64,000 nucleotides of DNA, from the sequence record NC_015933.1; one strand, written 5' to 3'. The notes below the pieces were generated by a model, which worked only from the letters and a program-made list of their open reading frames with translations, did not search any database and was not told the origin of the DNA. Position numbers and translations under genes: made by a program. This DNA is from Escherichia phage vB_EcoP_G7C. This document shows, piece by piece, positions 3,652 through 64,000 of the stretch (the stretch's first letter is position 1; each line of letters opens with the position of its first letter).

Positions 3652-4157
3652 TGATTGTTAATGGTAATTCTCTATACCGTTCATCTCAATTGCTGGATGT
3701 CCCAGACCGTAAGGTATCCGAGCATGGTGTAAGCTATGGATTAGGTGAAGCTGGTTATGATATTCGTATCAAACAAGACATTACCTTCTATCGCTTATTT
3801 GGGTTAATTCCAATGGTGAAAATCGTCGATGGAAAACAAGTATCACGCCATCTCGGTAAATTCGCATTAGCTTCAGCAATTGAGAAGTTCAACATGTCAC
3901 CCTCGTGTGTAGCTATCGTTCACGATAAGTCCACATGGGCAAGACGTGCATTATCTGTGTTCAATACCGTAATAGAACCAGGATGGAAAGGGTATCTTAC
4001 CCTTGAACTGGTCTATCACGGTCGTAAGAAACTGCATATCCCGGCTGGTGCTGGGATAGCTCAAGTATTATTTCATCTGGTTCAAGAGCCTGCTAATTAC
4101 AACGGCAAGTATCAGAATCAGGAGGACAAACCAGTAGCTGCAAGAAGCAGTAAATAA
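3651..4157 (+). CDS. dcd: dCTP deaminase / dUTPase-fold enzyme
   Basis: dUTPase-superfamily motif IEPGWKGYLTLEL; 168 aa, size typical of dCTP deaminase. Confidence 0.65.
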   Translation: MIVNGNSLYRSSQLLDVPDRKVSEHGVSYGLGEAGYDIRIKQDITFYRLFGLIPMVKIVDGKQVSRHLGKFALASAIEKFNMSPSCVAIVHDKSTWARRALSVFNTVIEPGWKGYLTLELVYHGRKKLHIPAGAGIAQVLFHLVQEPANYNGKYQNQEDKPVAARSSK

Positions 4158-4166
4158 GGAAACAAC

Positions 4167-4367
4167 ATGTCTGTATTTCAAGTAACTCCTGTTGATAGTA
4201 CCCAACGTAAAACTATTGTTGCAACTAATGTAGTAGATGTAGATGAAACCCCAGCTGGTGCTGTAATCCATCTGATTGATGGGCGAACTGTAACTGTAAA
4301 AGAAAGCTATCGTTCAGTACGTGGTTACGTCCGTAAAGCTTTAGCTGCTGTCTCTGATGCAGAGTAA
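4167..4367 (+). CDS. Hypothetical protein
   Basis: ORF with AAGGAAA RBS. Confidence 0.5.
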   Translation: MSVFQVTPVDSTQRKTIVATNVVDVDETPAGAVIHLIDGRTVTVKESYRSVRGYVRKALAAVSDAE

Positions 4368-27305: not shown

Positions 27306-30300
27306 TTAGTTTACTAAGTTCATCCAAGGGTTTAGGTTGTGAGCACGAAGCCCCTGACCAAAGCCCCATGAGTAATCCAGACTACCCTTAGCAGCAATAC
27401 TAAAGATGTTGTCCTGAATAGGTAAGCCAACGTTACCAAACATGGTAGGAGTTGGAGCCAGCATCGCCATTGCTGCATGTACTGGGTTATTGCGAATCAT
27501 GGACACTGCAACCTTAGCTGAACGAATCTTAAAGTTGTAGAACCACATTAAACCAACGCTTTCCATATACCCACGGAAACGGCCCGGCAGACGGTCATAG
27601 TTAATGAACTCTTCGGTTACACGTCCCAGTGCTTCTTCACGAGTCTTACCTTTACGCTGGGTCAATTCATCATAGATGATTGCTTTAGCGATAAAGTCAG
27701 AGTACTCAACCGTCTTCTGGATACCCTGGAACAGAGCAGTATCCTTAGTGATAAGTGCATAACGACCAGCAGCACGTACAGACTTAGGTAACTTATCCGC
27801 CAGCTTTTCCATGTATTCGTGAAGTTTACCTTCAGTAATCAGGATGTCATCACGACCAATACCAGCATCTGCAATTGAAGAGAACTCACCAGCTTCTATC
27901 AGAGGCCAGATACTCATACGCTTATGGCTATCAGTAATGGACTGAATCTCAGCCTTAAGTTTACGAATCTGGTTCGGGTTAGTAGCTGCACGTAATTCTG
28001 CTTCTGCATCTACCTGACGTAAACGAGATTTAAGGTATTGGTTAATCTCAGCAGTCTTCCGTGGAATGCTCTTAGCAATGTTCTTAACCGGTACACCACG
28101 AGCAACCATCTGGTAAAGGTTAGCCAAAAAGTTAACAACAGGTACGACTACTGACTTAACTACAATCAGAGTCTTAGCATCTTTAACTAAATTTTGAACC
28201 AGGTTCTCACCACCCATTAAGTACTTATAGGCACGGTTACCGGCTAAACCCAGAATAGCTTTTTTAAAAGTATTAAGCGTTTCCGGGGACCAACGAGAAT
28301 TACCAGACCAAGCATCACCAATCGAAGCTGCACGATAGCCAAGTGCATCATTCAGCATGTCACGACGTACCCACAGTTCACCCTCACCAAACAGTTTTTC
28401 TGCTTTCCGTCGAGTTTCACTGTTCATCAGCTTAAGAGCATCAGCAGTTACTGGGTCCAGTTTAGAACCAAAAAGGTTCACGTACTGGGACTTATTAGCA
28501 GCAGACATCTTAATGTCTTCCTTGTACATGCTATACAGGTTCTCAATCAGCATATCATTGAAACGCTGAGCCTTAGCTTCTTCCACCTGACGTCCACGCC
28601 ATACACCAATTGCACGGGCAAGATGATTTTCACCTTCAATATGCTTCAGCATATTAGGGTTAATTGATTGCTCATAAGCAACCACATCACCTTTAGCATT
28701 ATATACAGGCAGCAGTGGTTCATTACCACGTTCACCACGAGCTAGTGCTTTAGCGATACGGTCTACAGAAGGCTTGTCAGTAATACGACCAGCTACCATG
28801 GAACCCATAGTAAAGCCTGTACCGAGGTCTACACCACCAGCAGTATTACGAACGTTCTGTAGAATACCTTGTGAGAACGGAGCCTGTGCCTGTACTGGGG
28901 CAAAGTAGTAGCTACGTGCCAGACCTCGGTTAGCAGAGCTACCTTGATAAGTACCCAGACGAACATAGGACTTCTCTATCAAATCACCAAACTCGCTATC
29001 TTCAGCAACAACCAGACTAACACCCTGTTTAGTCTCACTAGGGATATACCCTTTGTACTGGTTCAGGGTTGCACGCATATCAGACTTGGCTTTAGCCATT
29101 TCATCTTTACGCTGCCCAACCAGGTAAGAAGTAGCAAAGTCCATTCCCTCAACTTCTGTCTGAGCCAGTGAAGATAACATCTCACGGTCGGACTTGTTCA
29201 TTGCTTCCAGTGCATACAGGGTAATAAGTTTATCCAGTTGAGCTACATCTACAATAGAACGAGTAGTCTTACGTTCACCCAGCATACGAGAGATTGCAGT
29301 AGCATTACGCAGCAAGTTTTTACCGACTGTGCCATTAATCATGTACTGAGCCAGTTGCTTAGATTTACGGTTAATCAGAGGCCAGTTACGACCAGCTTGT
29401 TTCTGCAAATCTGCTTCCAGCTTATTCACTTCACGGTCAACAATCTTCTGGTCTGAAAGCAGGTCACGAATTTCAGCCAGAGACATGGTGTCACGCAGGA
29501 CAGCTAAGTCAGTTTTACCCATACCAGTGTACATTGCTTTCCACTCATCCTTAGTCAGCTTACGGCTGAACTTAGATGCGATAGTGGTAGGCAGGTGTTC
29601 ACGGAACTGCTGACGGTCAGCCTGCACCTGTGCACGGACTGCTTTAATCAAATCGTATACAGAAGCATTGCTCTTAGTACGACCGGTTAAATCATTAACC
29701 AGGTCATGGAAAGGTTGCCATACTTTACCCTGGTTCATTGCAACCATAACGCCTTCAGCTACGTTTGCACCATTCTTCTCTGTAGCAATAGCAGCCATTA
29801 GTTGTGCAGCATGAGCAGCACCTTTGACCAATGGGTTCTTGGTATTAGCTGCAACTTCACGAGCACTTTCTAAAACACGAGTAGACAGTACATCAATAGA
29901 GTCCACCAAATACTGGTTAGCACGGTCAATAGCATTACCACTAGGAGTAGCAACGGAATCATAGAATGACTGTGCATTTAGGCTAGTCTGCATGATTGTT
30001 TGAGCCAGTGCATCCATACCTTCCTGTACGTTGGTAGCTTTGGTATCACCTGCTACACGAGCATTCAGACTAGCCATTGCAGCAGTACCAATGTTAGTCA
30101 GCATTGCATCAACGGTATTCCCAGATTTCTTATCTGCTTTCATAACAGGAATGTTAGCCAGTACGTTACGTACCTCTTCACTTACCATTGCCAGACCAAC
30201 AAAGGTAGGCAGTATTGAAGAACGACCCTGTGCATCAAACTCAATATTGTTAGCACCCATGATGGTATCGAACTTCTGCTGTGCATAGTAACGGTCAGCA

Positions 30301-33300
30301 GGGTTAGTACTATCTGGGTCAGTCATGAATGATTCAACAGTCAGGTTCTTAGTAACGTGTGCATAGTATTCCTGTGCACGAGAAAGAGCAGCCGGACTAA
30401 TAGCAGCTTCAGTAGCGAGTGCAGCAACAATGTTAGTAAAGAGACGCTGCTCCTGCATATTCATAGTGAAGCCATGAGCCTGAACATCACGGGTTACTTT
30501 AGTTGCGTGCTTTTTCGCATCAGAGAACTTACCTTCACGGATTACTTGCTGTACTGGTTCTGAACCAATGTAGTTAGTAATCAGCTTATCAAATGTCTGT
30601 CCTAACTCTTCCAGACGGGTATTGTCACCATATGCTTTGTTATGGAACAAAGTAGTATCTTTGGCTACAGCAGCAGTAGGAGCCTGCCCACGCATAACAA
30701 CTGAAGAGTTAAACAGTAAGCCAGAGAACATATCATCAGCATTAGCAGGTGCTTCTTCACGACCAAATACCAGTCGCTTGATTGCTTCATATACAGACTG
30801 AATCATAACTTTCAGTGCTGTGGTCTTCTTCTGCTTACTAATTAGCTCCTGGTTAGTTAAACCCCATGCCATGTACTCATTTAATGCAGCAGCTTTAGCT
30901 ATTGCTGGTTCAATATAGCCATTAGACAAGTAGCCGTTAATGGTATAGAGGGCATCGGCATATGCTTCACGTACTTCCGGAGATTCATCCTTAACATCCA
31001 GAGCAAGGAACTGGTTCATCAGGTCTTCGATATTCTGGACTGCTTCGTTAGGAGTACCCTCATAGTGAGCCAGTACAGATTCAAAAGTAGAAGCATGTAC
31101 CAATTCATGAACCAGAGTCTCTAAGGAAGGGGTGACTAAGTAGATGGTCTTATCATCAAAGTTAGTCCAGCCGTATGTATTACCTGCTTCGGCAGCTTCA
31201 ATATCTTCTGGTGCTGGACGGGTAATGTTCTTCTCAATAGCGTAAGCATCCAATTGAGCAGGAGTACCGTAAACAACCTTGTAGTCTTTAGCAGCAAGGG
31301 ATTTCTGTACTTCTTTCAATACTGCTTGCTGTTCAGGAGACATTTCTTTAGCCAGCTTAGTGATAGCAGTATTAGACAACAGACGTACACCAGACTTAAG
31401 TACACGACCAACTTGTTCCATTGCTGGCACTTCTTTAACAGGTGCTTCTTTCACTGGTTCTGCTTTAGCAGCACGTACTGCATCACGACGCTTGTTTAAT
31501 TCAGCATCGAACAGTTCGTTCAGCTTAGCTACTTGCTGGTCTACAGTCAGACCTTCCAGAGAAATTTTACCGTTGTTCACATATGGAGCACCTACAGCAG
31601 CCATCTGGTCAACAGTAGTCTGTACTTGGTTCATTACTTTGTGGCGAATATCTACACCCAGAGCAATGTTTCGCAAGTTACGCTCAATGAGGTTAACACC
31701 GGAATTCTTAATCATATCAATCTTATACTGCCTGTCCCCTTCAACACGACTGATATGAGAAAGCTGTTCAAAATCTAAAGCGGAACGGGCAATGTCATCA
31801 ATTGTCTTATCCGACAACTTATCAAAGTCTACGTTCTTCATGAACTTAGAGAAGGAGTCATACACGTTCTTAATAGGGTTGCCCTGCCAAGAAGTATATA
31901 CAGCCTCGTTAGCTTTACGACTTGCATCAGTGATGTCACTGATACCAATGTTCATACCATCAAAGATTTTCAGGGTATTCTTAGGAGCACCTTTCATAGT
32001 AGAAAGGGTCTGCATCATCATGCCATCACCAGTACCAATGGTCATAAACGGAATACCTGCAACACCTGCTTGTGAAGGAGCATAGATGCTCATTGGCACA
32101 CGCATACGGTCATCTAAGTTGGTAGCCAGTACTTGGTTAGCAACGTCAGTACTCTCACTGCCAGCAAGGTAGAAAGTCTGTGAGCCAGTCTCAATCATTG
32201 GGGCCAGTGGAGATAATGATTCCTGGATTTCATTCAGTTCTTTCTGTGTTAAGAAATCACCCTTCTTCCAGGTTGGGTCTTTTTCTTTTTCTGCTAGCTT
32301 AGTCTGTACTGCTTGTTGGAACATATCCTGCAATACCAGAGACTGAATCTGAGTAGCCTTCTGCAAGTTCTCAGTAGAGTACATCAGACCTTCACCAACA
32401 GTATTACGGATACCGGTACGCATTGGTTCAACGAACAAATGGAGCATGTTCTCTTGTAAGTTCTTCAGAGCATTACCGGATACGGTAAATTTCTGAGGGT
32501 TTAACTTACCAGTCAGAGCACCATCTACTTCCTTAATAAATAACTTACCTTTGCGCTTAGCTGGAATTTTACCAGTCAGTGCTTCCATAGAAGTAAGGAA
32601 AGTATCCAGCATAGCCTGAGCATCAGCCTCAGACGCAGCCTCCTTACCAAACATTGCCATAGCCGGGGAAATGCTAGGGTCAGCAGCACGTGCTTGCAGA
32701 ACGTCGCTGAAGCGTTCGTAGATGGTGTCAGTAATTGCACCGACTATATTACCAGCAATACCACGTGCACCAGCACCATAGATGGTAATGGTAAGCGGGT
32801 TTTTAGCGATACCACGTTTCAGGTCCAGAGTACCATCTTCATTCAGGTTAAAGTCTTTAATGAACAGGTCCATTAACTTCTGGAGATGATTTATCTGGTT
32901 TATAACTGGAACGTTGTTACGGTAAGTAGTACGTAACGCATTCAGTGCTTGTTGCAGACCATTGGTAGATGCTTCATACAAGTCAACATTATCGTCGATA
33001 GAACAATGTTCGTTCATCGTTTTACCAGCACGACCGAAGAACAAACCACCTTTGGCAGTATTCTTAATCCAGTCTGGGGTGAACTTACCACCAGTCATTA
33101 ATACCATTGCGTTGATTGGGCCGTTGGTTACACCATCAGCTTCAACGTACAGAGGGGTAGTAAAATTAGCACGGTCATCACTGTTCAGGTAACGGGCATA
33201 TTCCATCAGGGCCATGAGAGCTACGAAGGATTTGTTATCACCCAGAGAGGTTTTCAGAATATCTACTGCATCAGTAGGTAAATAACCAGACTTATCAAAC

Positions 33301-36300
33301 TCAACCATCATATCAACAGCAGGTTTCAAATTACCTTCCAGAGCTTTGGTCAGATTTTCAGACATAGCTTCACGGGACATTTTATGTACCTTGATGCCCA
33401 ATGCCTGAGCCAGACCTAACTGGAAGTCAGAGAATGCTTGGCTGTTTTCATTACTCAAGTCGATAGTGGAGAAGGTTGGCAGAATTGCTTCACGAACCAG
33501 TTTACTGGATTGTGGGTTATTCTTACCAAGCATCTGCATACGACCTACACGGGTCATGTTGTAACCGTAGTGAATGGGGGTATCCAAACCATTCTCTTGT
33601 TCTTTTAGCTGATTAATTAAACCGAACAAAGAATCATATGCCATAGATACCGATAAGTTCTTACCTTCCAGAGATTTGGCAGTGTTTTCATTCAGCAAAT
33701 CAGGATTAAGAGAACCAGCACCCATCAGTTCCAGAATGCCGTCTCGGCCTAATGCTTCATAGAAGTTAACCATCGGCATGTGTACACGGAACTCCGTAGC
33801 CTGTTCAGCTTTCAAAGCAGCTTTCTGTTCCGGGGTATTCCTAACAGCAGGGTTACGTAACTGAGTTTGAGCCACGGAAGGAATGTCATCACCGAAGTAC
33901 GTTTTCTCTTCCGGATTTACCAGCACAGCTTCCTCAATTGCTGTAGGGAAATTATTAATAGGGTCTTTATCTGCCAACTTATTAATAGTGTACAGACCAA
34001 TAGTCTTATTAGAGTCCGGGTCAATCTCAGACACATCCAGCATAGTCTCAGTAACTGCACCCATCTCGATGAGGGAAGACAGAATCTCTGTAGCCATTGC
34101 CGCTGGAATACCCTTGGTATAACCCAGTGGTGCATTAGGGTTACGGTTTAAACCCCAGTAGGATTCAATCTTTTGAGCCAGTGAGTTAGTAGCCTCAACC
34201 AGAGTCTGGGCATTCTCAAACTCAGTCAGAATACTTTCTGGTAACAGAGATGCATCTACACCAGTAATAGCAGCCACGTCTTTCATGTCTTTAATGGCAG
34301 CATTCTGTGTAGCAGTCAGTCGCCATTGCAGACCGGCAAGTACAGCAGTCTCTAACAACTGATCATTGAACTTAAAGGTATCTCCATCTTTCTCTACGAT
34401 GTTAAGTAACTTACCACTTACCCAACGGTTAGCTTCAGTACCTTCTGCAAAACGTTTACCAACGTTCTTATTAGCAAGGAACTTAGCCAGTCGTTTAGAC
34501 AGAGTAGCCTTCAGAGTTTCCCCAAAGTCCATCAAGTCTTGATAGCGTTCTAACACATCACCTGCGAGAACGTTATTTTCTTTTTGAGTGAATGCTTCAA
34601 AGCGAGCAGCAGAAGACAGTGCTTTCTTGATATCAGCCAAAGGAGATTCAGAACCAATGGTACGGGACTTAGGTTCTTCCGGTAGGGTAAATGCCTTCAG
34701 GAACTGGTTCGGTGTCTTCTCATTGTTATAGACAGGGAACACTGCTTCCATTCCAGAAAGAGGTTTGCCACCCACTGTATAGTCTGCTTTCAGCTGAGCC
34801 AGTGATACCTCATCTTCCTCCACGTTGTTAGTGTTAAGACCAGAGGTATCTACACCAACCAGAATATGTGCATTATTGGCTTCAACGAAAGATTGAACAG
34901 TATTGAATTGTTCAGCAGTCAGTTTCTGATCATCGAACAGCTGTAAGGACACAAACGGTTGTTCGCTGCCTTTATAGAACATAGAGCGAATAGCACCTGT
35001 ATCCAGAGACATATCACGATAACCATCATGACCAAATACATCGGACAGGCTGATATGGTCGCCATTAGAGCCAACCACAGTACCATCAGCAAACAGCCAT
35101 GGACTCTCTCTACGATCACCATACTTATTAAGAGTTTCCTGTGAAATAGTATTTTCTTTCACATAAGCATCTCTTTCAGATTCGGTAGGTTGCTCGATGG
35201 TATCCTCATTAGTAAGGGTAGCATCATCTACAACCGGGCTAGCCTTTTCAGACTTAGGTACTTTCTCTTCCTGTACAGGTGTAACTTCTGGCTGGGAGAA
35301 TGTATTACGTACATAGTTCATAAAATCATTACGTGCTTGGGAAGGGGAAGACCATACTTCCCGTGTGCTACGTAAACTAAAGATTCGACCTTCAGGAGTC
35401 ATTACGTAAGGTACATTTGTTTTACCGTACTTAAATGAAGTGAGTACATCTGACTTACCAGTAACAGTGCTTTCCCCTGGAATGACAATAGTCTTACCAC
35501 CAGTAGAAGGAACAGCACGAACACCCTCAATATCCTTACCAAGAGAAATATACTCTTTACCGTTGTAATCAAAGTACTGACCTATCTGCATATAGGTAGC
35601 TTGTTGCTTACCAGTAAACTCAGCAGTTTTCATCTCCGGGCCGTTAGGTACAGACGTACTTTCAGACTTAGGCTTAGATACTTTCTCTGGTTCTGACTTA
35701 GACTCTACAGTGTTAGGGGCAGTCTCTTTTGCTTCGACTGGTGCAGTTTTTGACTGTACAGTAATGGCTGGTTCCTGTGTTTTTACAGGTGTTTCATCAA
35801 CCTGATTCACTGGTTCATTAGTCTGTTGGGACTGAGTGGCATTAAGACCACCTTGACGGAACTCTTTAACTACCTGGGCAGCTGGCTTGTTCAGACGTGA
35901 ATCCAACGAGGTAACTTTCACATGAGAAACATTAAGCTCCGGGTAAGCCGTAGCAAGTGCATTAGCAATATCAGCTACGGTTTTGGCCTCCAGTGCTACT
36001 TGCTGGGCAAACTTAACAGACTTGGTATCATAAGGATTAACACCGAGGCCAGTACGACTACGTACCCATTCACGGGTAGGCGTGAGAGCCTGATAATGAA
36101 CAGACTTATTCTTATCCGCATTCCCCGAAATCAGATGCTCATTCAACGCTCCGACCTTATTCTGCATGTGCTGGGCGAACTTCATAAAATCGCTCAGATA
36201 AGCGGAAGCCAAATCGAAGTTACCAGAGTTATACGCAGAACGAATGCGTTTCGCATGTTGCAACGCAGAGTACTGTCCTTCATTAGAACGAGACTCGTCG

Positions 36301-38552
36301 GTTTTAATCTGTTTACTAACAATGTCTTGAGGACGTAAGCCCAGTTCTTCTGCTTTAGCATCATACTCACGTGCACCCTGTAACAGAGCAGCAGCTGATT
36401 GCAGGGCAGCACGTTGACGATTATTCAGTGTAATCTTACCTTCACTTGCGTGCTTCAGAACCATGTTCACTGAATCTGCATCCAGTACTTCTGGAGACAC
36501 ATCAGCAGCCATAGCAATGTTGTTTGCTTGGGCTTGATTAGCTTCTTCAGTAGCTTTCAGTTTACCTGCTTCAGCTTGTTCCTGAATCATGGAATGGATG
36601 GCACGGAATGCACGAAGTACTTTAGGGGTATTCTGTATGTTAGCCATCAGGCCGGAGAACTGGTCTACGATTGCAGCAGCAGGAGAACCTTGTTCCAGAT
36701 TAGCCAGAGCACCTGGGTCACGGTTAATGAAGCTATCCATAGACATGATGTTGTCATACATCTGGATTGCAGCTTCCATTTGAACGTCAGGGTCTTCAGC
36801 AGTATTAACCAAGTCAGCCATCTTCTGAATAGCTTCCACACGGTTAGTGGAACCAGAAACAGCTTCACGGATTACTGGGTTGGCTTGTTCCAATTCTACT
36901 GGGTCAAACTTCATTGCCTGAGTCAAGTCAGCAGCATACTGGGTAGCAGCAGCTTTCTCTTCTGGAGTGATATCCATTGCATCTACTGCTTCCTGTACGG
37001 TTGCCTGTGCTTGTTCTGCCTGAGCAACAGCTTCCTGTGCAGCAGCATTAACCGTAGCATCGGCTACAGGGGATGCTTGTTCATTACGCTTAGCAACTTC
37101 TTCCCCACGTTGAACCAGGATGTTAGTAAGAGGAGATGCAGCTTTTGCTAATGTTTTACCAACCAGAGAAGCACCAGCCAGAGTGGTACGAAGAGCAGGT
37201 CCAGCAGCAGCACCGGCAGCTTTAACAGTTGCACCAGGAGCCTGAGCAACACCAGCACTACCGAAGCCATAGAGTGCACCAAGACCCGCTTGCTCACCGA
37301 CACCTTTGAGGGTATCTCGGGATGCATCAACATTTTCCTTGATTGCACGGTTCTGTGCGAACTGACCAAAGCCTGATTGAGTACCCTCTTCAAAAGTCTG
37401 AGCACCAAGGTTAGTAAGAGCTGCCCCAGCAGAACCAACCCTCATGGGGTTAAGTTCAAACTTAGATACTAACGGACCCATAGCAGCAGCAACTGGGGCA
37501 GTTAAGGCAGCAGCAATGATACCCGTTTCAGATGCAGTCTGACGACGTGCTTCATCAGGAGATAAACCATCAGCAATATGTTGTTGGTAAACAGGAGACT
37601 TACTTGCCAGTTCTGGATGGGACATCTTCATGATTTCAGAAGCAGTCTGTTGGTATGCACCCCCGGCTTCCATGCCACCGATTGCAATAGCAGGTGCAGC
37701 AACACGACCAGTAGACAATGCAACCTGTGCAGGACGTGAACCCAACCCAGCAGCTAAGGTAATACCCTTAACAGCTTTATCACCACCTACCATTACTTTA
37801 CCGAGTGCAGATACACCACGAATAAGTGGACCACCAGTAAAGAGGGAACCGACACCCTCACTCAGTCCATCTGAGGCAGCCATACCATTATCAAGTGTGT
37901 TAGCAACAGAGTCGAAAGCATCACGACCAATACGAGACAGGGAGGCAACCAAATCACTCTCCCCGTTTTTGATGTCCTGTTCATAGAGTTTCTGGTTCTT
38001 TTGAGCAGAAATCTGGTTCTGATTCTGAACAACTTTACGGGTAGCATTCAGTGCATCAGACTGTAGATTGTGTACGCCTTCATTCAGCCAATCCATCCCG
38101 GAAGCAATGGTTGCCCCGGCATTATCATTGACCAGACCTGCGCCAAGAGCAGCAATGCCCCCAAGGGTATTAGCAACACCAAGACCAACACCAGAAAGAG
38201 TATCGCCAAATGCTTCTGCGTTAGTACGCTGTTTAGATAAGTCCTGACGTACAGCATCCGCAGCATTAGCTCGGCTATTAAGAATCTGTAAACCTTGCTC
38301 ATTACCGTACTTATTAATGATTTCTAATGGGGAGGCTTGAGTGAAGTCTGCCTGAAGTGAACCTGGTTCGAATGCACCGATTCCAAGATTACCTACTCGT
38401 CCAGTCTGGAGAGTGTAAGCATTCTCTGGGGTTAATTGGAAAGGGCTTTGCCCTTGTGCAGCTTGCTTCTGAGAGGTTGCAGTAGAGACATCGACTTGCT
38501 TAGCATTAGTGATGCTGTCTGCGAAACCTGCCAGACGGTCAAATGTTGACAT
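27306..38552 (-). CDS. Virion-encapsidated RNA polymerase (N4 vRNAP-like giant protein, about 3748 aa)
   Basis: Single 11.2-kb ORF; T7-like RNAP motifs in the central region: motif A YVEADGVTNGP, motif B KRGIAKNPLTITIYGAG, motif C KIFDGMNIG; ATG at 38552 has AGGAAA RBS (ORF-track TTG at 38570). Confidence 0.9.
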   Translation of the reverse strand: MSTFDRLAGFADSITNAKQVDVSTATSQKQAAQGQSPFQLTPENAYTLQTGRVGNLGIGAFEPGSLQADFTQASPLEIINKYGNEQGLQILNSRANAADAVRQDLSKQRTNAEAFGDTLSGVGLGVANTLGGIAALGAGLVNDNAGATIASGMDWLNEGVHNLQSDALNATRKVVQNQNQISAQKNQKLYEQDIKNGESDLVASLSRIGRDAFDSVANTLDNGMAASDGLSEGVGSLFTGGPLIRGVSALGKVMVGGDKAVKGITLAAGLGSRPAQVALSTGRVAAPAIAIGGMEAGGAYQQTASEIMKMSHPELASKSPVYQQHIADGLSPDEARRQTASETGIIAAALTAPVAAAMGPLVSKFELNPMRVGSAGAALTNLGAQTFEEGTQSGFGQFAQNRAIKENVDASRDTLKGVGEQAGLGALYGFGSAGVAQAPGATVKAAGAAAGPALRTTLAGASLVGKTLAKAASPLTNILVQRGEEVAKRNEQASPVADATVNAAAQEAVAQAEQAQATVQEAVDAMDITPEEKAAATQYAADLTQAMKFDPVELEQANPVIREAVSGSTNRVEAIQKMADLVNTAEDPDVQMEAAIQMYDNIMSMDSFINRDPGALANLEQGSPAAAIVDQFSGLMANIQNTPKVLRAFRAIHSMIQEQAEAGKLKATEEANQAQANNIAMAADVSPEVLDADSVNMVLKHASEGKITLNNRQRAALQSAAALLQGAREYDAKAEELGLRPQDIVSKQIKTDESRSNEGQYSALQHAKRIRSAYNSGNFDLASAYLSDFMKFAQHMQNKVGALNEHLISGNADKNKSVHYQALTPTREWVRSRTGLGVNPYDTKSVKFAQQVALEAKTVADIANALATAYPELNVSHVKVTSLDSRLNKPAAQVVKEFRQGGLNATQSQQTNEPVNQVDETPVKTQEPAITVQSKTAPVEAKETAPNTVESKSEPEKVSKPKSESTSVPNGPEMKTAEFTGKQQATYMQIGQYFDYNGKEYISLGKDIEGVRAVPSTGGKTIVIPGESTVTGKSDVLTSFKYGKTNVPYVMTPEGRIFSLRSTREVWSSPSQARNDFMNYVRNTFSQPEVTPVQEEKVPKSEKASPVVDDATLTNEDTIEQPTESERDAYVKENTISQETLNKYGDRRESPWLFADGTVVGSNGDHISLSDVFGHDGYRDMSLDTGAIRSMFYKGSEQPFVSLQLFDDQKLTAEQFNTVQSFVEANNAHILVGVDTSGLNTNNVEEDEVSLAQLKADYTVGGKPLSGMEAVFPVYNNEKTPNQFLKAFTLPEEPKSRTIGSESPLADIKKALSSAARFEAFTQKENNVLAGDVLERYQDLMDFGETLKATLSKRLAKFLANKNVGKRFAEGTEANRWVSGKLLNIVEKDGDTFKFNDQLLETAVLAGLQWRLTATQNAAIKDMKDVAAITGVDASLLPESILTEFENAQTLVEATNSLAQKIESYWGLNRNPNAPLGYTKGIPAAMATEILSSLIEMGAVTETMLDVSEIDPDSNKTIGLYTINKLADKDPINNFPTAIEEAVLVNPEEKTYFGDDIPSVAQTQLRNPAVRNTPEQKAALKAEQATEFRVHMPMVNFYEALGRDGILELMGAGSLNPDLLNENTAKSLEGKNLSVSMAYDSLFGLINQLKEQENGLDTPIHYGYNMTRVGRMQMLGKNNPQSSKLVREAILPTFSTIDLSNENSQAFSDFQLGLAQALGIKVHKMSREAMSENLTKALEGNLKPAVDMMVEFDKSGYLPTDAVDILKTSLGDNKSFVALMALMEYARYLNSDDRANFTTPLYVEADGVTNGPINAMVLMTGGKFTPDWIKNTAKGGLFFGRAGKTMNEHCSIDDNVDLYEASTNGLQQALNALRTTYRNNVPVINQINHLQKLMDLFIKDFNLNEDGTLDLKRGIAKNPLTITIYGAGARGIAGNIVGAITDTIYERFSDVLQARAADPSISPAMAMFGKEAASEADAQAMLDTFLTSMEALTGKIPAKRKGKLFIKEVDGALTGKLNPQKFTVSGNALKNLQENMLHLFVEPMRTGIRNTVGEGLMYSTENLQKATQIQSLVLQDMFQQAVQTKLAEKEKDPTWKKGDFLTQKELNEIQESLSPLAPMIETGSQTFYLAGSESTDVANQVLATNLDDRMRVPMSIYAPSQAGVAGIPFMTIGTGDGMMMQTLSTMKGAPKNTLKIFDGMNIGISDITDASRKANEAVYTSWQGNPIKNVYDSFSKFMKNVDFDKLSDKTIDDIARSALDFEQLSHISRVEGDRQYKIDMIKNSGVNLIERNLRNIALGVDIRHKVMNQVQTTVDQMAAVGAPYVNNGKISLEGLTVDQQVAKLNELFDAELNKRRDAVRAAKAEPVKEAPVKEVPAMEQVGRVLKSGVRLLSNTAITKLAKEMSPEQQAVLKEVQKSLAAKDYKVVYGTPAQLDAYAIEKNITRPAPEDIEAAEAGNTYGWTNFDDKTIYLVTPSLETLVHELVHASTFESVLAHYEGTPNEAVQNIEDLMNQFLALDVKDESPEVREAYADALYTINGYLSNGYIEPAIAKAAALNEYMAWGLTNQELISKQKKTTALKVMIQSVYEAIKRLVFGREEAPANADDMFSGLLFNSSVVMRGQAPTAAVAKDTTLFHNKAYGDNTRLEELGQTFDKLITNYIGSEPVQQVIREGKFSDAKKHATKVTRDVQAHGFTMNMQEQRLFTNIVAALATEAAISPAALSRAQEYYAHVTKNLTVESFMTDPDSTNPADRYYAQQKFDTIMGANNIEFDAQGRSSILPTFVGLAMVSEEVRNVLANIPVMKADKKSGNTVDAMLTNIGTAAMASLNARVAGDTKATNVQEGMDALAQTIMQTSLNAQSFYDSVATPSGNAIDRANQYLVDSIDVLSTRVLESAREVAANTKNPLVKGAAHAAQLMAAIATEKNGANVAEGVMVAMNQGKVWQPFHDLVNDLTGRTKSNASVYDLIKAVRAQVQADRQQFREHLPTTIASKFSRKLTKDEWKAMYTGMGKTDLAVLRDTMSLAEIRDLLSDQKIVDREVNKLEADLQKQAGRNWPLINRKSKQLAQYMINGTVGKNLLRNATAISRMLGERKTTRSIVDVAQLDKLITLYALEAMNKSDREMLSSLAQTEVEGMDFATSYLVGQRKDEMAKAKSDMRATLNQYKGYIPSETKQGVSLVVAEDSEFGDLIEKSYVRLGTYQGSSANRGLARSYYFAPVQAQAPFSQGILQNVRNTAGGVDLGTGFTMGSMVAGRITDKPSVDRIAKALARGERGNEPLLPVYNAKGDVVAYEQSINPNMLKHIEGENHLARAIGVWRGRQVEEAKAQRFNDMLIENLYSMYKEDIKMSAANKSQYVNLFGSKLDPVTADALKLMNSETRRKAEKLFGEGELWVRRDMLNDALGYRAASIGDAWSGNSRWSPETLNTFKKAILGLAGNRAYKYLMGGENLVQNLVKDAKTLIVVKSVVVPVVNFLANLYQMVARGVPVKNIAKSIPRKTAEINQYLKSRLRQVDAEAELRAATNPNQIRKLKAEIQSITDSHKRMSIWPLIEAGEFSSIADAGIGRDDILITEGKLHEYMEKLADKLPKSVRAAGRYALITKDTALFQGIQKTVEYSDFIAKAIIYDELTQRKGKTREEALGRVTEEFINYDRLPGRFRGYMESVGLMWFYNFKIRSAKVAVSMIRNNPVHAAMAMLAPTPTMFGNVGLPIQDNIFSIAAKGSLDYSWGFGQGLRAHNLNPWMNLVN

Positions 38553-38625
38553 AGCATGTTTCCTGTTCAAACTTATATCGTATATAGGTAACTTACTCTA
38601 CAGTAAGCCAGTTAAAGAAAAAAGC

Positions 38626-52168: not shown

Positions 52169-52240
52169 AGGGATTTTCTCAGGTTAGTTAAGTCGTAATT
52201 GACTGAAACAGTCTACATAAAGGTTTGATTGGGGTACAAC

Positions 52241-58852: not shown

Positions 58853-60442
58853 TCACACAATGTATGAACGTAGTGGGTTAACACTATCTTCTTCTTCCTC
58901 ATCCCACATTGGGTCACCCTTGTTATCCACCAAAGTCATACCTGCTTGTGGTTTCCAAGGATTGAGATAACCCAGCATGGAGATAGTATCAATACAGTCA
59001 TCCTTACCTTTAATCCCATTAATGGTAGCTAGTTTAATCTGGCCCATGAAAAGACCCATAATAGTTGTATCTCTCAACTCTTCCGGGAAGTACATCTTAC
59101 CAGCTTTGAACCATGGAACTACCAGGTTAAAACGTGACAGTTTAGAGGTTACAGGACGGATGCCTGGCTTACCACCCTCAGAAGATGCAAAGTTAAAGAA
59201 GACATTACGGTTAATCATTTCTTTCTGAAGGAGTGATATGAATCCACCTTGCTGTCCTGTAATTTCGACACCAACGTTTTGTGGTTGGTATTCCTGAACC
59301 AGACGGAACAAGTCGTCAAAGTTTTTATCCATAAGCTGACGATTAGCCACACCGTCAACCCAGAACCAATCTCCATTAGAACTGTAAGCCCAAACTGATA
59401 TGACGCTGTAGTCACTGGTCTGTTTCTCCGAAGTAGCAAAGTCTGTTGTAATGTAATAGTTGTAGCAGGACTTCATCCTTAACAGTTGTTGCCTGCTGTA
59501 CCACTTAATCTCACTATCCTGAACAAGACGTTCATCTTCAGAACTAATACGAAGCATAAGTTCCTGGTAGAAACCAGCCAGCTTACCGGTCTTAACTGCC
59601 ATATCGTATTGGGCTTTGATATAGTCATACGAGAAACGGTCATCCCATGCACCCTGAAACTCTTCTCTACTACATGGGAACTTCTCGCACACAGGCCATA
59701 CGTTGACATCCCATGCACCGGACTCAACTGCTTCAATGATGATGTCTTCCTTATTAAAGGGAGTACCATTGAAGATTACTTTACGGCGTGTTGGGTCAAG
59801 AGCATGGTTCACACCTTTATAGACAGTATCCTTAATAGCTTCCATGCTTGTCTTAGAGTTAGCATCACCATCACTAATCAAGTCATCCAGTACGCATAGT
59901 GTCGGACGTTTACCATATATCTTCGTACCACGAAGACCTGTCTTAGCACCAAATAACTTAACACCCAGACGATGACCTTCTGCATTACGGAACTCTAACA
60001 GGTTATCTGTAAAAATAGCTTCGGGTATCCACTGCTGAAGGAACTCACTATTCTTGTATCGGAACTCAATGTTCTTACGTGCAGACTTAGCACCGTTATC
60101 CATTGAGTCAGATACGTAAATCATTCCTTCTACTTTACCAAGACTTGGTAAATGCCCAAACACTGCCAAGAACAAAGTAAAGTATTCCATGAACACAGCA
60201 GTCTTACCTGCACCACGGAAACACAGGTTAACTACATACTGATTCGGGGTAATCATCTTATCCAACATCTTCAGGTGAACTGGGGGTGTTTTGTTGGATT
60301 CACCCTCTTTACCATTAACCAACTTAATAAAGTTGGCAAAGGTAAGAGCAAACTGACTAGGAACATAGTTAGATGAATTAAGGTGGGAGTAATCCACCTG
60401 GTCTAGCCATTCATCTAGTTCCTGTTTAATTAACTCAGACAT
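58853..60442 (-). CDS. Terminase large subunit
   Basis: N-terminal ATPase with Walker A-like CFRGAGKTAV; C-terminal nuclease-like region; ATG 60442 with AGGA RBS (ORF-track GTG at 60463). Confidence 0.8.
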   Translation of the reverse strand: MSELIKQELDEWLDQVDYSHLNSSNYVPSQFALTFANFIKLVNGKEGESNKTPPVHLKMLDKMITPNQYVVNLCFRGAGKTAVFMEYFTLFLAVFGHLPSLGKVEGMIYVSDSMDNGAKSARKNIEFRYKNSEFLQQWIPEAIFTDNLLEFRNAEGHRLGVKLFGAKTGLRGTKIYGKRPTLCVLDDLISDGDANSKTSMEAIKDTVYKGVNHALDPTRRKVIFNGTPFNKEDIIIEAVESGAWDVNVWPVCEKFPCSREEFQGAWDDRFSYDYIKAQYDMAVKTGKLAGFYQELMLRISSEDERLVQDSEIKWYSRQQLLRMKSCYNYYITTDFATSEKQTSDYSVISVWAYSSNGDWFWVDGVANRQLMDKNFDDLFRLVQEYQPQNVGVEITGQQGGFISLLQKEMINRNVFFNFASSEGGKPGIRPVTSKLSRFNLVVPWFKAGKMYFPEELRDTTIMGLFMGQIKLATINGIKGKDDCIDTISMLGYLNPWKPQAGMTLVDNKGDPMWDEEEEDSVNPLRSYIV

Positions 60443-61124
60443 CTGTAATGTCCTCATCTGCACGTACTAGTTTAGAACCAGCAATCTCTTTAGTAGGTAC
60501 ACCACTATTGATTGCATTAATTTGCTGTTCAGCCAATGCAGCAAGCGTTGCCTTGAGGTCAGTCAACCCAGAGTTTTCTCTTAAGTCCAGATTGATATTC
60601 GTTACCTGATCTTTCGGTTTAGCTAAGTGGGTAAGGATAGAGTTAGCTGCATCACATCTTACCTTCTCACTTACCGCTGTAGTCATCAGTTCAACCTGAA
60701 CATTGATTGCCTTCTGATAGTTGTCTTGGTTCACAATCCACACCGGAACCAAACTTTGTTCCATGATGAGGTTAACTAACTTACCTCTGTGATAAGCAGA
60801 TACGTAAGCACTAATATCTTTCTCACTGGTTCCTCGAGCTACAAGTTCTGCTTGTCGGTTAGGAAATGTTTTGAAGTAGGCTTCCTTATTTGAGTAGCCC
60901 ATGTGTTTGTAAGTCACATACTGAACTGCATTCATGTAGTCCTGCGTCTTAAACTTACCCTCTTTCATAACACCAGAGTAAGAGATGAAGTTTTCACGAA
61001 ATGCTTCAGCAACCAGTTGGTCTTGGGTTATGTTGTTAATCGTGTCTACCAACTCCTGGCTTACACTGTTCTTGAAGTTAGCAGGTAAGGCATTAATGAT
61101 TTGCTGCTTAGTTAGCTCTCTCAT
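60435..61124 (-). CDS. Putative terminase small subunit / DNA-packaging protein (by position)
   Basis: 229-aa ORF immediately upstream of and overlapping the large terminase gene; first gene of the minus-strand operon. Confidence 0.4.
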   Translation of the reverse strand: MRELTKQQIINALPANFKNSVSQELVDTINNITQDQLVAEAFRENFISYSGVMKEGKFKTQDYMNAVQYVTYKHMGYSNKEAYFKTFPNRQAELVARGTSEKDISAYVSAYHRGKLVNLIMEQSLVPVWIVNQDNYQKAINVQVELMTTAVSEKVRCDAANSILTHLAKPKDQVTNINLDLRENSGLTDLKATLAALAEQQINAINSGVPTKEIAGSKLVRADEDITDV

Positions 61125-61295
61125 ACTTATCTCTCTACAAAGTTATGTCTATTAACGAAGATTCTTTTCTTGGGGTGAGATACCCCTTGAAGAAACTCTA
61201 ACACACAGTTACACTTTAGTCATGATATAGAAAAAGTTCATGATACTAAATAGTATGTAATGTTCCGATGACCCTATTCCCAAAAGGAGTAACCT
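61125..61295. promoter_or_regulatory. Divergent intergenic region likely carrying promoters for the minus-strand late operon and plus-strand small genes
   Basis: 170-bp AT-rich gap between divergently oriented ORFs; direct repeat TCATGATA x2; -10-like TATGTAAT. Confidence 0.3.
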
Positions 61296-61586
61296 TTGAG
61301 AATCTATATGAGAGTCATCGACTCTAAAGACGAATACTCAGAGATAGACCATACCAAAGCTGGCTTTATGGCTGGTGACATAATCCTTACCCATGACGAA
61401 GATACATTCCATGAGTTATCTGGAATGATGCTATTAGAGAACCGTCCTGGTATTACCATCTTAGAACCGCAAGAAACTTACTCTTTAGAAAAGTCTATTC
61501 CATCTCTTGTGTTCTTCACAAAATTACCTCATAGTGTCTCCATCAAACGAAGCAAAGATAGCGTTCGGATGACGGTGATGATGTGA
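61296..61586 (+). CDS. Hypothetical protein
   Basis: TTG start 6 nt after AAAGGAG RBS (next ATG is 19 nt from the RBS). Confidence 0.45.
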   Translation: MRIYMRVIDSKDEYSEIDHTKAGFMAGDIILTHDEDTFHELSGMMLLENRPGITILEPQETYSLEKSIPSLVFFTKLPHSVSIKRSKDSVRMTVMM

Positions 61587-61735
61587 TTAGTCATACCGCC
61601 TAGTAGACAGTGGCGGTACTCGTAAAGAGTTAATAACTTCTACAGTCAGGGTTCCCCGGCTCCTTTCCTACTCCGTAGGTCTAACGGTACATAAGTACCT
61701 AGGGGGGTGAACTGACCCGTGATTGAAAACGGTAA

Positions 61736-61771
61736 GGGGTAGGGTCGAGAGGCTCTACCCCATTTCTTTTT
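61736..61771 (+). terminator. Rho-independent terminator
   Basis: 7-bp stem GGGGTAG/CTACCCC followed by a T-rich run. Confidence 0.55.
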
Positions 61772-61787
61772 CTGGAGGCATGCAATT

Positions 61788-62186
61788 ATGAGCATCTACG
61801 CTTTTGATATTGATATTACTGGAGTACTCCGTAAACAGGAACCCTATTACCTTGGGGAACCAGAAGTAGTAAGTAAGTTCACTGCCCCGTCACAATCAGT
61901 ATTCTTACCAGATTGCGAAGAGTCCCATGAAATAATTGGTTCTCTTTTCTTATCCAATCTTCAACTTAACACTGAGATACTTACTGAACCAAGGGTGTAT
62001 GACCTTACCTATTATGATGGGTTTAACGAGTTCTTCCCCGGCATACGCTTCTATAAGATAGATGGTTGGGAATTGATAGCTGACCATAACGTCTTTAATA
62101 AGACACTTTCCATTTACTTCAGATCTATCCCTAAAGGAAGGAAAATCAATCATGAAATTCATAATGACCATCCCCAGTTTTGTTGA
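61788..62186 (+). CDS. Hypothetical protein
   Basis: CTGGAGG RBS. Confidence 0.5.
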   Translation: MSIYAFDIDITGVLRKQEPYYLGEPEVVSKFTAPSQSVFLPDCEESHEIIGSLFLSNLQLNTEILTEPRVYDLTYYDGFNEFFPGIRFYKIDGWELIADHNVFNKTLSIYFRSIPKGRKINHEIHNDHPQFC

Positions 62187-62466
62187 GGGGGAATCTATGT
62201 ACACAACTGACTTCTCTTTAGAAGAGGTCATGAACAGCAACCCCCAGCAAGTAATCCTGGTTCCTACCTTAGAGAATTATCACGAAGTAAGGGGTCAACT
62301 CTTCTTAGCAGGCAATGACCGTAAGGTTGTATGCATTATCCCACCTTCTGTCTATACCAACTATAACGCTAATGACCCCATACCGTACATGCTGGTATCC
62401 GATGAATACCAATGGGGGAGTCGTTACGAGAATGGTGAATATCATTACTACTATGTAAGGAAGTAG
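62152..62466 (+). CDS. Hypothetical protein
   Basis: AGGAAGGA RBS; 35-nt overlap with upstream ORF. Confidence 0.45.
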   Translation: MKFIMTIPSFVEGESMYTTDFSLEEVMNSNPQQVILVPTLENYHEVRGQLFLAGNDRKVVCIIPPSVYTNYNANDPIPYMLVSDEYQWGSRYENGEYHYYYVRK

Positions 62467-62469
62467 GGT

Positions 62470-62781
62470 ATGCACCTGTACTGCCTGATTAGCTATGCCA
62501 CTACCTGTTATCTATCCCCGTATACAATGGATAATATTCTGGCAGGTAAGGGGAGTGCTGCCACCATCCTATATGAACCAAGTGAAGAAGCAGAAGTATT
62601 CCTAGGTACTTGCTTAATACTGGGGCAACCTATCCAATTCATTAAGATAGTGGATTCTGTGGAAATACCGGAGCACACCTGTGTGTACATACTGTCTGAT
62701 AAAGAGCCTATGGTAGCTACTACTCTTACAGGTAGACTCATTACCCTTTACCCTTCCTCCTATTTAACTGCTTATAAGTGA
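62470..62781 (+). CDS. Hypothetical protein
   Basis: AAGGAAG RBS. Confidence 0.45.
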   Translation: MHLYCLISYATTCYLSPYTMDNILAGKGSAATILYEPSEEAEVFLGTCLILGQPIQFIKIVDSVEIPEHTCVYILSDKEPMVATTLTGRLITLYPSSYLTAYK

Positions 62782-62984
62782 GATAGCTATAATATTTTTG
62801 CATGTCAAAATTGTGATAGCTATGTATGGCTGTAGTGGTGTGACAGGGGCTACACCCTTACACGTTAACTACCCCCCCGGTATGTTGACTCATGGGTGTA
62901 CTACCCTACCCCACCTTACACCTTACACGTTGCTCCGCAACTTATGGACATGTCGTCCTATCATCAACTATTGGAGCTATCATC

Positions 62985-63308
62985 ATGACTACTACCGCTA
63001 CTGTACGTATGACCGCAGGAACTCTGCTGGGTACTGTTAACTCTGCTGCTACTACTGTTGCAGATTCATTCGGTGCTGCTACTAAAGCAGTTGGTATGCT
63101 TAATTCTTACGTAGCTACTATGGCAAAGAAACAAGCCATTCGTACTAAATTAGAAATGCATACTTTCGAAAACAAATTAGCTGAAGAAACAGCTATGAAC
63201 GAGACTATGCGTAAGAAAAGTATCGAAGAATTCTGCAAAGACCCAGAAAACGCTCGTATCTACAACGCAGAATATTCAAGAATAATTGACATCCTGTCCC
63301 AGGACTAA
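62985..63308 (+). CDS. Hypothetical protein (T/A-rich N-terminus, charged helical C-terminus)
   Basis: ATG at 62985 with TGGAGC RBS (ORF-track start 62892 lacks RBS). Confidence 0.45.
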   Translation: MTTTATVRMTAGTLLGTVNSAATTVADSFGAATKAVGMLNSYVATMAKKQAIRTKLEMHTFENKLAEETAMNETMRKKSIEEFCKDPENARIYNAEYSRIIDILSQD

Positions 63309-63311
63309 CCA

Positions 63312-63333
63312 AAAATCCCCAGAAATGGGGATT
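63312..63333. terminator. Hairpin with GAAA tetraloop (terminator-like)
   Basis: Perfect 9-bp stem AAATCCCCA/TGGGGATTT with GAAA loop. Confidence 0.4.
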
Positions 63334-63430
63334 TAAAACCTAAACGCTCCGCGTTGTTTCGAAGACAACTCCGGTGAACTACTGCAAGGCTAAACCCATA
63401 GGAGGCTCTTCGAGCCCCTTTTAAGGGCAT

Positions 63431-63445
63431 TAGATAGATAGATAG
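63431..63445. repeat. Short tandem repeat (TAGA)3TAG
   Basis: tagatagatagatag in an intergenic region. Confidence 0.8.
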
Positions 63446-63481
63446 TCAGTTCTGTATAAAAAGATAAAAGAGATACCTACT

Positions 63482-63628
63482 ATGAGCAAACTAAAAAACG
63501 CATTCATGCTGATTGTCAGTGTCCTTGCACTTGTTGCTATGGTTTCCGTATACATTGGAAAACCTCTGGTAAACACTGACTATGGTAATGGTCAGAAAGT
63601 AAAATCCATCCTGCTAATGGATAAGTAA
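63482..63628 (+). CDS. Small membrane protein (48 aa, one TM helix)
   Basis: ATG with AAGAG upstream; FMLIVSVLALVAMVSVYI hydrophobic helix. Confidence 0.35.
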   Translation: MSKLKNAFMLIVSVLALVAMVSVYIGKPLVNTDYGNGQKVKSILLMDK

Positions 63629-63682
63629 AAACTGGGCTGTTCCACAGCTTACGGATACATTTCAACCAATTAGGAGACATCC

Positions 63683-63898
63683 ATGCACGCAGAAAATATC
63701 CGTATAATTGAGAATTGCTTCAGCGATAAACCAGTAGACCTCAGCAATGCAAGAAGGTCTACAGATAAAGAATACAGAGAGTTTCTCTCCTTACTCGATG
63801 AATACCGTATGCAAGGGCATGTTGAGTTACATGCCTATCTGCATAACTCAGGCTACTTCATGGATAAACTGGAAGCTGAAACAGGCTGTCCATTCTAA
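63683..63898 (+). CDS. Hypothetical protein
   Basis: TAGGAGA RBS 6 nt upstream of ATG. Confidence 0.5.
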   Translation: MHAENIRIIENCFSDKPVDLSNARRSTDKEYREFLSLLDEYRMQGHVELHAYLHNSGYFMDKLEAETGCPF

Positions 63899-64000
63899 GT
63901 AAACCATTCCCTCTTAGGAGGGAATTAGCCATCTTTAGATAGTTCAACTAGAAAGATAGCTATTCGCAGAAGATGCGAAGCAGCATCTACTTTAAGATAA

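Follow-up and report, generated by a model that had tools for sequence, protein, structure and literature searches.

Positions 61,125-64,000 of a 64,000-nucleotide stretch of Escherichia phage vB_EcoP_G7C (sequence record NC_015933.1; the whole stretch is called the window here) had been described, in an original prediction made from the letters alone, as a cluster of small plus-strand genes separated by hairpins, some of which could be early promoters of the kind used by the virion RNA polymerase (vRNAP) of phage N4. We find that this interval most probably spans the junction at which the right and left physical ends of the genome meet, and that it includes the start of the early region with its N4-type hairpin promoters; we put the probability of this reading at about 85%. 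The evidence in hand comprises homology, motif statistics, stem covariation, mapping of the ends by homology, and conservation of the polymerase residues that contact the promoter. Where transcripts of this particular phage start and stop, and where its DNA ends, we infer from homology with N4 and its relatives.

A total of 57 phage records match about 3 kb around the interval with 85-90% identity, nearly all of them Escherichia or Shigella Gamaleyaviruses, and the large open reading frames (ORFs) of the window agree with the N4 gene plan. Judged by sequence, the window is a Gamaleyavirus genome (G7C-like, N4-type) in permuted form, with its direct terminal repeat collapsed to one copy, and its first base corresponds to a point some 8.8 kb in from the left end of the reference genomes.

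Predicted physical ends and terminal repeat

Homology to the terminal repeats of relatives defines the following feature:

62840-63243, no strand assigned: predicted direct terminal repeat of about 403 bp, present as a single copy in the assembly

By blastn, window positions 62846-63308 correspond to positions 4-464 of the St11Ph5 record and to positions 5-410 of N4, and window positions 62765-62842 correspond to the last 78 nt of the St11Ph5 record. Because the window matches both termini of that record, it crosses the end-to-start junction of a properly oriented genome. N4 base 1 aligns at about 62842. Both copies of an exact direct terminal repeat are present in the records of 24-32N (402 bp), UE-S5a (401 bp), and Mimir124 (402 bp, annotated as 1-403), and all of these repeats map to window 62840/1-63243. 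The ends of Mimir124 were set with PhageTerm, its left end agreeing with the run-off-verified end of G7C and its repeat being given as 401 bp (PMC11640937); the terminal repeats of N4 are 390-440 bp long (PMC3715699). We take 62840 as the predicted physical left end, which would make 61125-62839 the right end of the virion DNA and would confine the early region to the last 1.16 kb of the window, 62840-64000.

The original prediction was thus borne out, by homology, in that 61125-64000 includes a genome end and the beginning of the early region as well as hairpin promoters of the N4 type: the ends and early starts are not predicted elsewhere, the predicted end at 62840 and the predicted start of the first early transcript at 62946 both lying inside the interval. 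Its suggestion that the whole interval is early did not hold, as the first 1.7 kb, which carries gp70 to gp71.2 (61296-62781), is assigned to the right end of the virion DNA. It is the permutation of the assembly that puts the early genes at the window's right end; their true place is the left physical end, and the apparent arrangement of early genes at the right end of the genome is a permutation artefact. In N4, the left end enters the cell first, transcription by the injected polymerase draws in the next part, and entry of the remainder needs middle transcription (PMC4496689, PMC3715699). The genes gp70-gp71.2, lying at the right end, would be the last to enter the cell and therefore would not belong to the early region. 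For annotation, this gives a predicted physical origin at 62840 and makes the right-end small genes and the early genes separate modules that are adjacent only in the permuted assembly.

N4-like repeats range widely in length (397-1974 bp), and a unique insertion just downstream of gp1 sets the window apart from its relatives, so we considered whether the repeat of this phage might be longer than the ≈402 bp of the relatives, or otherwise placed. In three relatives of the same genus, however, the repeat measures 401-402 bp and always has the same boundaries. The window preserves both of these boundaries well, and the left one also matches N4, which makes a longer or shifted repeat rather improbable. 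A repeat of about 1.16 kb in G7C found no support, the genus value from Mimir124 being 401 bp.

The roughly 78 nt before the predicted left end (62764-62839) are conserved even where the upstream genes differ. This segment contains a sigma-70-like TTAACT-18-TATAAT and repeated GATAGCTAT / TAGATAG motifs, which recur at 63431-63446, downstream of the gp1 terminator, and at 63933-63963, near the window end; these repeats might be recognised during packaging or by a DNA-binding protein. Copies of the first promoter and the terminal repeat, duplicated or inverted, occur within the records of CU10EC (3404 and 3619), F22 (197, minus strand, and 317, plus strand), and Jgk1 (1-400 and 500-998), and these internal copies are most likely artefacts of assembly or circularisation.

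Candidate hairpin promoters of the early region

The early promoters of N4 are template-strand hairpins with a stem of 5-7 bp and a 3-nt loop, in which the template bases read -12A, a purine at -11, -10G, -9C, and -8G, followed by about four A's (PMC4496689, PMC3715699). Initiation occurs 8 nt downstream of -8, the essential sequence contacts are -8G and the -11 purine, and -8G is contacted by R904 and -9C by D901 (PMC4496689, PMC3715699). On the coding strand, the corresponding motif consists of a stem, GC-TYC-GC, the returning stem, about four T-rich bases, and G. Applied to the left 6 kb of N4, the motif scan gives exactly three sites, at 96, 565, and 4554, upstream of gp1, gp2, and gp15, which are taken to be the published P1-P3.

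Across both strands of the 64-kb window, the strict heptamer with a stem of at least 5 bp occurs at two sites, 62935 and 63349, compared with 0.08 expected from dinucleotide shuffles; relaxing the closing pair while keeping -8G adds one site, 63642. Only these three hairpins in the entire window combine a stem of 5 bp or more, TYC in the loop of the coding strand, and -8G. All three point rightward on the plus strand and lie 95-803 nt inside the predicted left end (62840). Each has a 5-bp stem and a 3-nt loop that reads TCC on the coding strand; the loop-closing C:G pair (template -9C) is present at 62935 and 63349, with T:A at 63642. TYC-loop hairpins as a class are concentrated in the 1,161-nt left-end segment, which holds five of them against 0.065 expected, a number reached in none of 2000 shuffles. 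The rule that emerges for the early promoters of this phage group (5 bp or more of stem, TYC in the loop, -8G, and a GG 11 nt further on) gave no false positives in the ≈150 kb searched. The candidates are as follows:

62929-62941, plus strand: P1 hairpin, GTTGC-TCC-GCAAC with template loop GGA, then TTAT and GGAC; homologue of N4 P1
63343-63355, plus strand: orphan hairpin, AACGC-TCC-GCGTT with the full GC-TCC-GC heptamer, then GTTT and CG; found by motif
63636-63648, plus strand: variant hairpin "P1.2", GCTGT-TCC-ACAGC, then TTAC and GGATAC; before gp1.2
63971-63988, minus strand: promoter-type heptamer GCTTCGC centred on 63978; a leftward start would lie at 63967

Alignment with the N4 promoters, which had been proposed as a check, identifies P1 as the positional and sequence homologue of N4 P1 (GTTGC-TTC-GCAAC TTAT GGAC): it occupies the same position and differs by one loop base. 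P1 is present in every relative with compensatory stem changes, and its predicted start, G 62946, lies 39 nt before the gp1 ATG. Every relative also has a P2 between gp1.2 and gp2, located in NAN33P5 and K57alpha1.2 at 209 and 377 nt past the point matching window 63978, and the P2 of this genome, the gp2 promoter, is predicted to sit just beyond the window end. P1.2, with a predicted start at G 63653, keeps -8G and -11G and has T:A, not C:G, as its closing pair. Its core is identical in seven relatives (F22, E20, ZQ2, pSb-1, Moo19, EC1-UPM, and CU10EC), with stems of 5-8 bp, and St11Ph5 carries the canonical GGAAGC-TCC-GCTTC TATT GGATAC at this site. The T:A-closing variant before gp1.2 offers a natural test of how strictly the polymerase needs -9C.

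The orphan hairpin lies in an insertion of about 88 nt (63309-63396) between the gp1 stop and the conserved gp1 terminator. This insertion is absent from the relatives examined, and in a blastn search of phage records only its first hairpin, at 63313-63334, was matched, in Jgk1. Two different 21-22-mers from it had no exact match in viral or metagenome collections, and its origin was not traced. We consider it doubtful that the orphan hairpin is active as a promoter. A terminator follows 50-70 nt downstream, and a smaller possibility is that hairpin (63349) and terminator form a tiny transcription unit that vRNAP would read into a very short transcript. At the leftward heptamer, one substitution breaks the stem that NAN33P5 and K57alpha1.2 keep as a perfect 5 bp; the motif may be a relic, act as a decoy, or belong to a small antisense unit. 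A leftward transcript from 63967 would meet the hairpin at 63925-63906, which is terminator-like on the minus strand. Two other TCC-loop hairpins were rejected as promoters, 61666-61678 (CCTAC-TCC-GTAGG) and 63293-63305 (TCCTG-TCC-CAGGA): both are without -8G and a GG start, and the loop of the former is not conserved. Early promoters of this kind are not annotated in any of the public records inspected.

Stem variation among 19 distinct promoter sequences amounts to 21 double-sided changes against 5.2 in shuffles (none of 500 as high), a figure in which only the pattern of variation is informative, since pairing of the inner five pairs was itself a selection criterion. Double changes occur freely at stem positions -17/-5, -16/-6, and -15/-7; the -14:-8 G:C pair, -10, and the GG at +1/+2 are invariant, and -11 is nearly so. 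The polymerase itself is encoded at the following position:

27306-38570, minus strand: vRNAP ORF of 3,754 codons

It is 70% identical to N4 vRNAP over the mini-vRNAP domain and keeps eight of nine promoter-contact residues (K114, R119, W129, K268, K849, K850, D901, and R904), the ninth being changed from K267 to N. The mechanically called ORF begins at a TTG six codons upstream of an ATG (MSTFDRLAG...; window 38553-38570, minus strand). This ATG, which aligns with the N4 start, is likely the true start rather than the upstream TTG.

The hairpins that had first drawn attention to the interval, together with other hairpins downstream of gp1 and gp1.2, have these features:

61595-61617, plus strand: helix A of the gp70-gp71 spacer, with an 11-nt loop; z = -3.0
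61736-61761 with a T-run to 61771, plus strand: terminal intrinsic terminator of the spacer, 11-bp stem; z = -2.2
63313-63334, plus strand: hairpin AAATCCCCA-GAAA-TGGGGATTT just past the gp1 stop, with a weak T tail (TTT only); DNA fold -8.9 kcal/mol, z = -5.0
63401-63422, plus strand: gp1 terminator GG-A-GGCTC-TTC-GAGCC-CC, then TTTT; by homology
63906-63925, no strand assigned: perfect 8-bp hairpin ATTCCCTC-TTAG-GAGGGAAT past the gp1.2 stop, conserved in F22 and E20

The original prediction had offered four of its hairpins (61600-61625, 61736-61771, 63312-63333, and 63394-63406) as possible vRNAP promoters of an early cluster extending over the whole interval. They are real hairpins in intergenic positions, and the strength claimed for them stands for 61595-61617, 61736-61761, and 63313-63334. 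It does not stand for the hairpin given as 63394-63406, which actually lies 10 nt away at 63404-63416 and has z = -1.2 on its own, or for a fifth, 52201-52213, whose z = -1.2 and 26 of 200 equally good shuffles put it at chance level as well. Of the five, only these two have a 5-bp stem with a 3-nt loop. With its 5-bp stem, TTC loop, and C:G closing pair, 63404-63416 does resemble N4 P1; however, its 3-nt loop exists because of a deletion in a copy of a TTCG-tetraloop terminator, which has a 4-nt loop in the Gamaleyavirus relatives compared. None of the five named hairpins qualifies as a promoter: all fail the essential -8G, and none of the four is followed by a T-rich spacer and a GG start, whereas 62929-62941, 63343-63355, and 63636-63648 had been missed. 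The 11-nt loop of 61595-61617, the 11-bp stem and T-run of 61736-61761 (an annotated terminator in PhAPEC5), and the location of gp70-gp71.2 at the end of the virion DNA that enters the cell last all argue in the same direction, and we regard these hairpins as promoters as largely refuted, with next to no probability left to them.

Terminator-like sites are in fact enriched across the region (7, compared with 1.6 expected). The 63401-63422 terminator is a slightly deleted copy of GGAGRCTC-TTCG-GAGTCTCC plus a T-run, the form that stands after gp1 in the other Gamaleyavirus relatives compared, with the exception of Jgk1. A related hairpin followed by TTTT occupies this place after gp1 in N4 (492-516). 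The 63313-63334 hairpin is an alternative post-gp1 module and is the sole post-gp1 hairpin in Jgk1.

That the three motif-matching hairpins might likewise act only as RNA, as terminators or stability hairpins, with early transcription starting elsewhere, is suggested by 63636-63648, which immediately follows a stop codon and scores as a terminator when read on the other strand. No plus-strand T-run follows any of the three, however, and P1 is homologous in sequence to N4 P1, a promoter with an experimentally mapped start site. The invariance of loop, -8, and GG start while the stems covary fits recognition of the hairpin by a protein, and the contact residues of the polymerase are conserved. 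We consider a purely RNA-level role highly improbable.

The promoter reading suggests the following course of events. The left end would be injected, and gyrase-driven supercoiling would extrude the P1 template-strand hairpin (62929-62941), whose loop purines (-10G and -11G) and -8G would be read by the injected vRNAP. From G 62946, which is 11 nt past the centre of the loop, transcription would proceed through gp1, with most transcripts ending at the hairpins and T-run of 63313-63334 and 63401-63422. The second conserved, variant hairpin (63636-63648) would then drive gp1.2 from a start at 63653, and P2 would act beyond the window.

Several points weigh against the junction-and-promoter reading as a whole. 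Both physical ends and the start sites of this phage rest on homology, and N4-type polymerases may or may not stop at the putative terminator hairpins. P1.2 is without the C:G closing pair, -9C being the base contacted by D901 in N4, and its activity is uncertain; the orphan hairpin has C, not G, at its predicted start (63360) and thus no GG. To these we add the selection built into the covariation test and the transcription class of gp70-gp71.2, which may be middle or late.

The gp70-gp71 spacer and neighbouring genes

Between gp70 and gp71 lies a non-coding segment whose structure appears to be conserved from N4 to G7C-like phages. Besides helix A and the terminator, it comprises these features:

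61587-61787, plus strand: conserved structured non-coding spacer of 201 nt, marked by conservation and compensatory changes
61666-61678 and 61686-61700, plus strand: inner hairpins of the spacer, which also has a long-range stem and a small hairpin

The spacer is 91-99% identical in 54 records, and it still reaches 98% identity in contigs that share only 79-84% identity in the gp71 protein; its conservation thus exceeds that of both flanking genes. In Moo19, Jgk1, and N4, the sequence has diverged and the helices persist. Of the 51 pairs in the consensus fold, 10 show double-sided compensatory changes, and five helices are kept by such changes in Moo19 and Jgk1 and partly in N4, where helix A and the terminator are recognisable. 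The segment 61736-61771 was the sole plus-strand match of the terminator scan, and the depositors of PhAPEC5 independently annotate a terminator at the last helix of the spacer. The ribosome-binding site of gp71 directly abuts the T-run.

These properties raise the question of whether the spacer is a functional structured non-coding RNA or a cis-regulatory leader (an attenuator over gp71-gp71.2), beyond a terminator with filler. Its conservation above both neighbouring genes, the five helices with compensatory changes, the position of the gp71 ribosome-binding site right after the T-run, and the putative small RNAs reported at another locus of the N4-like phage LUZ7 favor such a function. On the other side, the z score of the fold is moderate (-2.35), the covariation comes from only five or six diverged sequences, and some of the conservation may be due to signals in the DNA close to the genome end, for example for packaging or replication. 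Rfam gave no match for the spacer at the gathering score, the lone hit being a chance microRNA match (E = 0.68) elsewhere in the region. A gp71-anchored search of viral contigs returned seven loci, all close relatives that added little diversity for covariation. We judge the chance of such a function to fall just short of even. Somewhat more tentative still is the proposal that the spacer represents an undescribed structured RNA element running from N4 to G7C-like phages, which may be either a stable small RNA or 3' untranslated region product ending at 61771 or an attenuator-type leader gating gp71-gp71.2 at the end that is injected last. The literature searched gave no description of the spacer, and its strong conservation and covarying helices make it a cheap target for an RNA-level check in N4 itself.

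The strand switch and the run of small plus-strand ORFs in the original prediction are real: all seven plus-strand ORFs match PHROG families of unknown function (E 1e-35 to 1e-64). Pfam found no domain in any of the eight proteins tested, and searches of the whole window found no tRNA and no Rfam family. The genes, the plus-strand ones named after the annotations of St11Ph5 and PhAPEC5, and the control region at their head are as follows:

58853-60463, minus strand: terminase large subunit
60435-61124, minus strand: gp69
61125-61295, no strand assigned: divergent intergenic control region between gp69 (minus) and gp70 (plus), 95-98% identical among relatives
61296-61586, plus strand: gp70, 96 amino acids from TTG (92 from the ATG at 61308); phrog_7213, E 1e-41; annotated in St11Ph5 and PhAPEC5
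61788-62186, plus strand: gp71, 132 amino acids; phrog_9160, E 3e-64; annotated in St11Ph5 and PhAPEC5
62152/62197-62466, plus strand: gp71.1, 104 amino acids from 62152 or 89 from 62197; phrog_11661, E 2e-56
62470-62781, plus strand: gp71.2, 103 amino acids, the last gene before the genome end; phrog_12099, E 2e-53
62985-63308, plus strand: gp1, 107 amino acids, 65% identical to N4 gp1 (E 1e-49); phrog_5020
63482-63628, plus strand: 48-amino-acid ORF with a hydrophobic core; phrog_26357, E 5e-35
63683-63898, plus strand: gp1.2, 71 amino acids; phrog_20790, E 4e-52; gp1.2 is annotated in St11Ph5

The divergent control region is better conserved than gp70 (95-98% versus 80-88% identity to relatives), shares a block of about 40 nt with N4 (GATTCTTTTCTTGGGGT..ACCCCTTG.AGAAAC), and probably carries promoters for both directions. 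Within the shared block is a hairpin, GGGGT-(5 nt)-ACCCC, with T-rich and A-rich runs on its flanks. A sigma-70 promoter scan gave four sites against 7.6 by chance, fewer than expected, and was not used. The TTG start suggested for the first ORF, gp70, is upheld by an AAGGAG 6 nt upstream, by the phrog_7213 profile, which reaches four residues beyond the ATG form, and by the annotated ATG of N4 gp70, which aligns exactly with the TTG. For gp71.1, the phrog_11661 profile reaches 15 residues upstream of the short form. By blastn co-linearity, three further ORFs (≈870 bp) found between gp71.2 and the terminal repeat in St11Ph5 (3500-4367), pSb-1, CU10EC, and others are missing here, at 62782-62839; the right-end cluster is a variable cassette region. 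In the K57alpha1.2 record (OY979416.1), the annotation is out of register with the sequence, placing a "DNA primase" and an "exonuclease" over the gp70-gp1 region.

Among the early genes, gp1 corresponds to the N4 early protein implicated in middle-promoter use (PMC4496689). The 48-amino-acid ORF is annotated in F22, ZQ2, E20, EC1-UPM, pSb-1, and Moo19, and its product is probably a small membrane protein.

Comparison with known systems

The predicted terminal repeat resembles those of N4 and of the Gamaleyaviruses Mimir124, G7C, 24-32N, and UE-S5a (401-402 bp in these four) in its left boundary, (G)TGGC..GGGGCTACACCC, in its right boundary inside gp1 (..TTCTGCAAAGAYY), and in its content of P1 and the first two-thirds of gp1. 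It differs in being present as one copy in the collapsed, permuted assembly, whereas the records of Mimir124, 24-32N, and UE-S5a carry both. The promoters share with N4 P1-P3 the hairpin on the template strand (5-7 bp, closed by a GGA or GAA loop of 3 nt), the GC-TYC-GC coding heptamer, the roughly four T-rich bases, the GG start 11 nt from the loop centre, and the rightward orientation at the left genome end. In this genus, however, they precede gp1, gp1.2, and gp2, compared with gp1, gp2, and gp15 in N4, with different spacing; the gp1.2 promoter is T:A-closed, losing the -9C contact, and there is one extra, orphan hairpin with a non-G start.

Like intrinsic terminators, 61736-61771 at the end of gp70 and 63401-63422 at the end of gp1 each combine a G+C-rich stem with a T-run behind it. 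Single-subunit phage polymerases are the enzymes that would be expected to encounter these putative terminators here, and the one at gp70 is set within a larger conserved fold. In LUZ7, an N4-like phage of Pseudomonas, early promoters and putative small RNAs have been mapped by ONT-cappable-seq. Shared by both systems, as mapped in LUZ7 and as predicted here, are early hairpin promoters numbering more than three, the occurrence of promoters in tandem, initiation with G, and non-coding transcripts from between genes. LUZ7 belongs to another subfamily, its loci are not homologous, and its starts lie 13-14 nt from the hairpin centre, compared with 11 nt here and in N4.

Taken against these systems, the N4 early-promoter and terminal-repeat architecture of this interval is known biology in a new Gamaleyavirus genome. 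Three features go beyond routine: the conserved promoter variant closed by T:A, the orphan hairpin, and, most of all, the structured gp70-gp71 spacer, the sole item that is possibly new.

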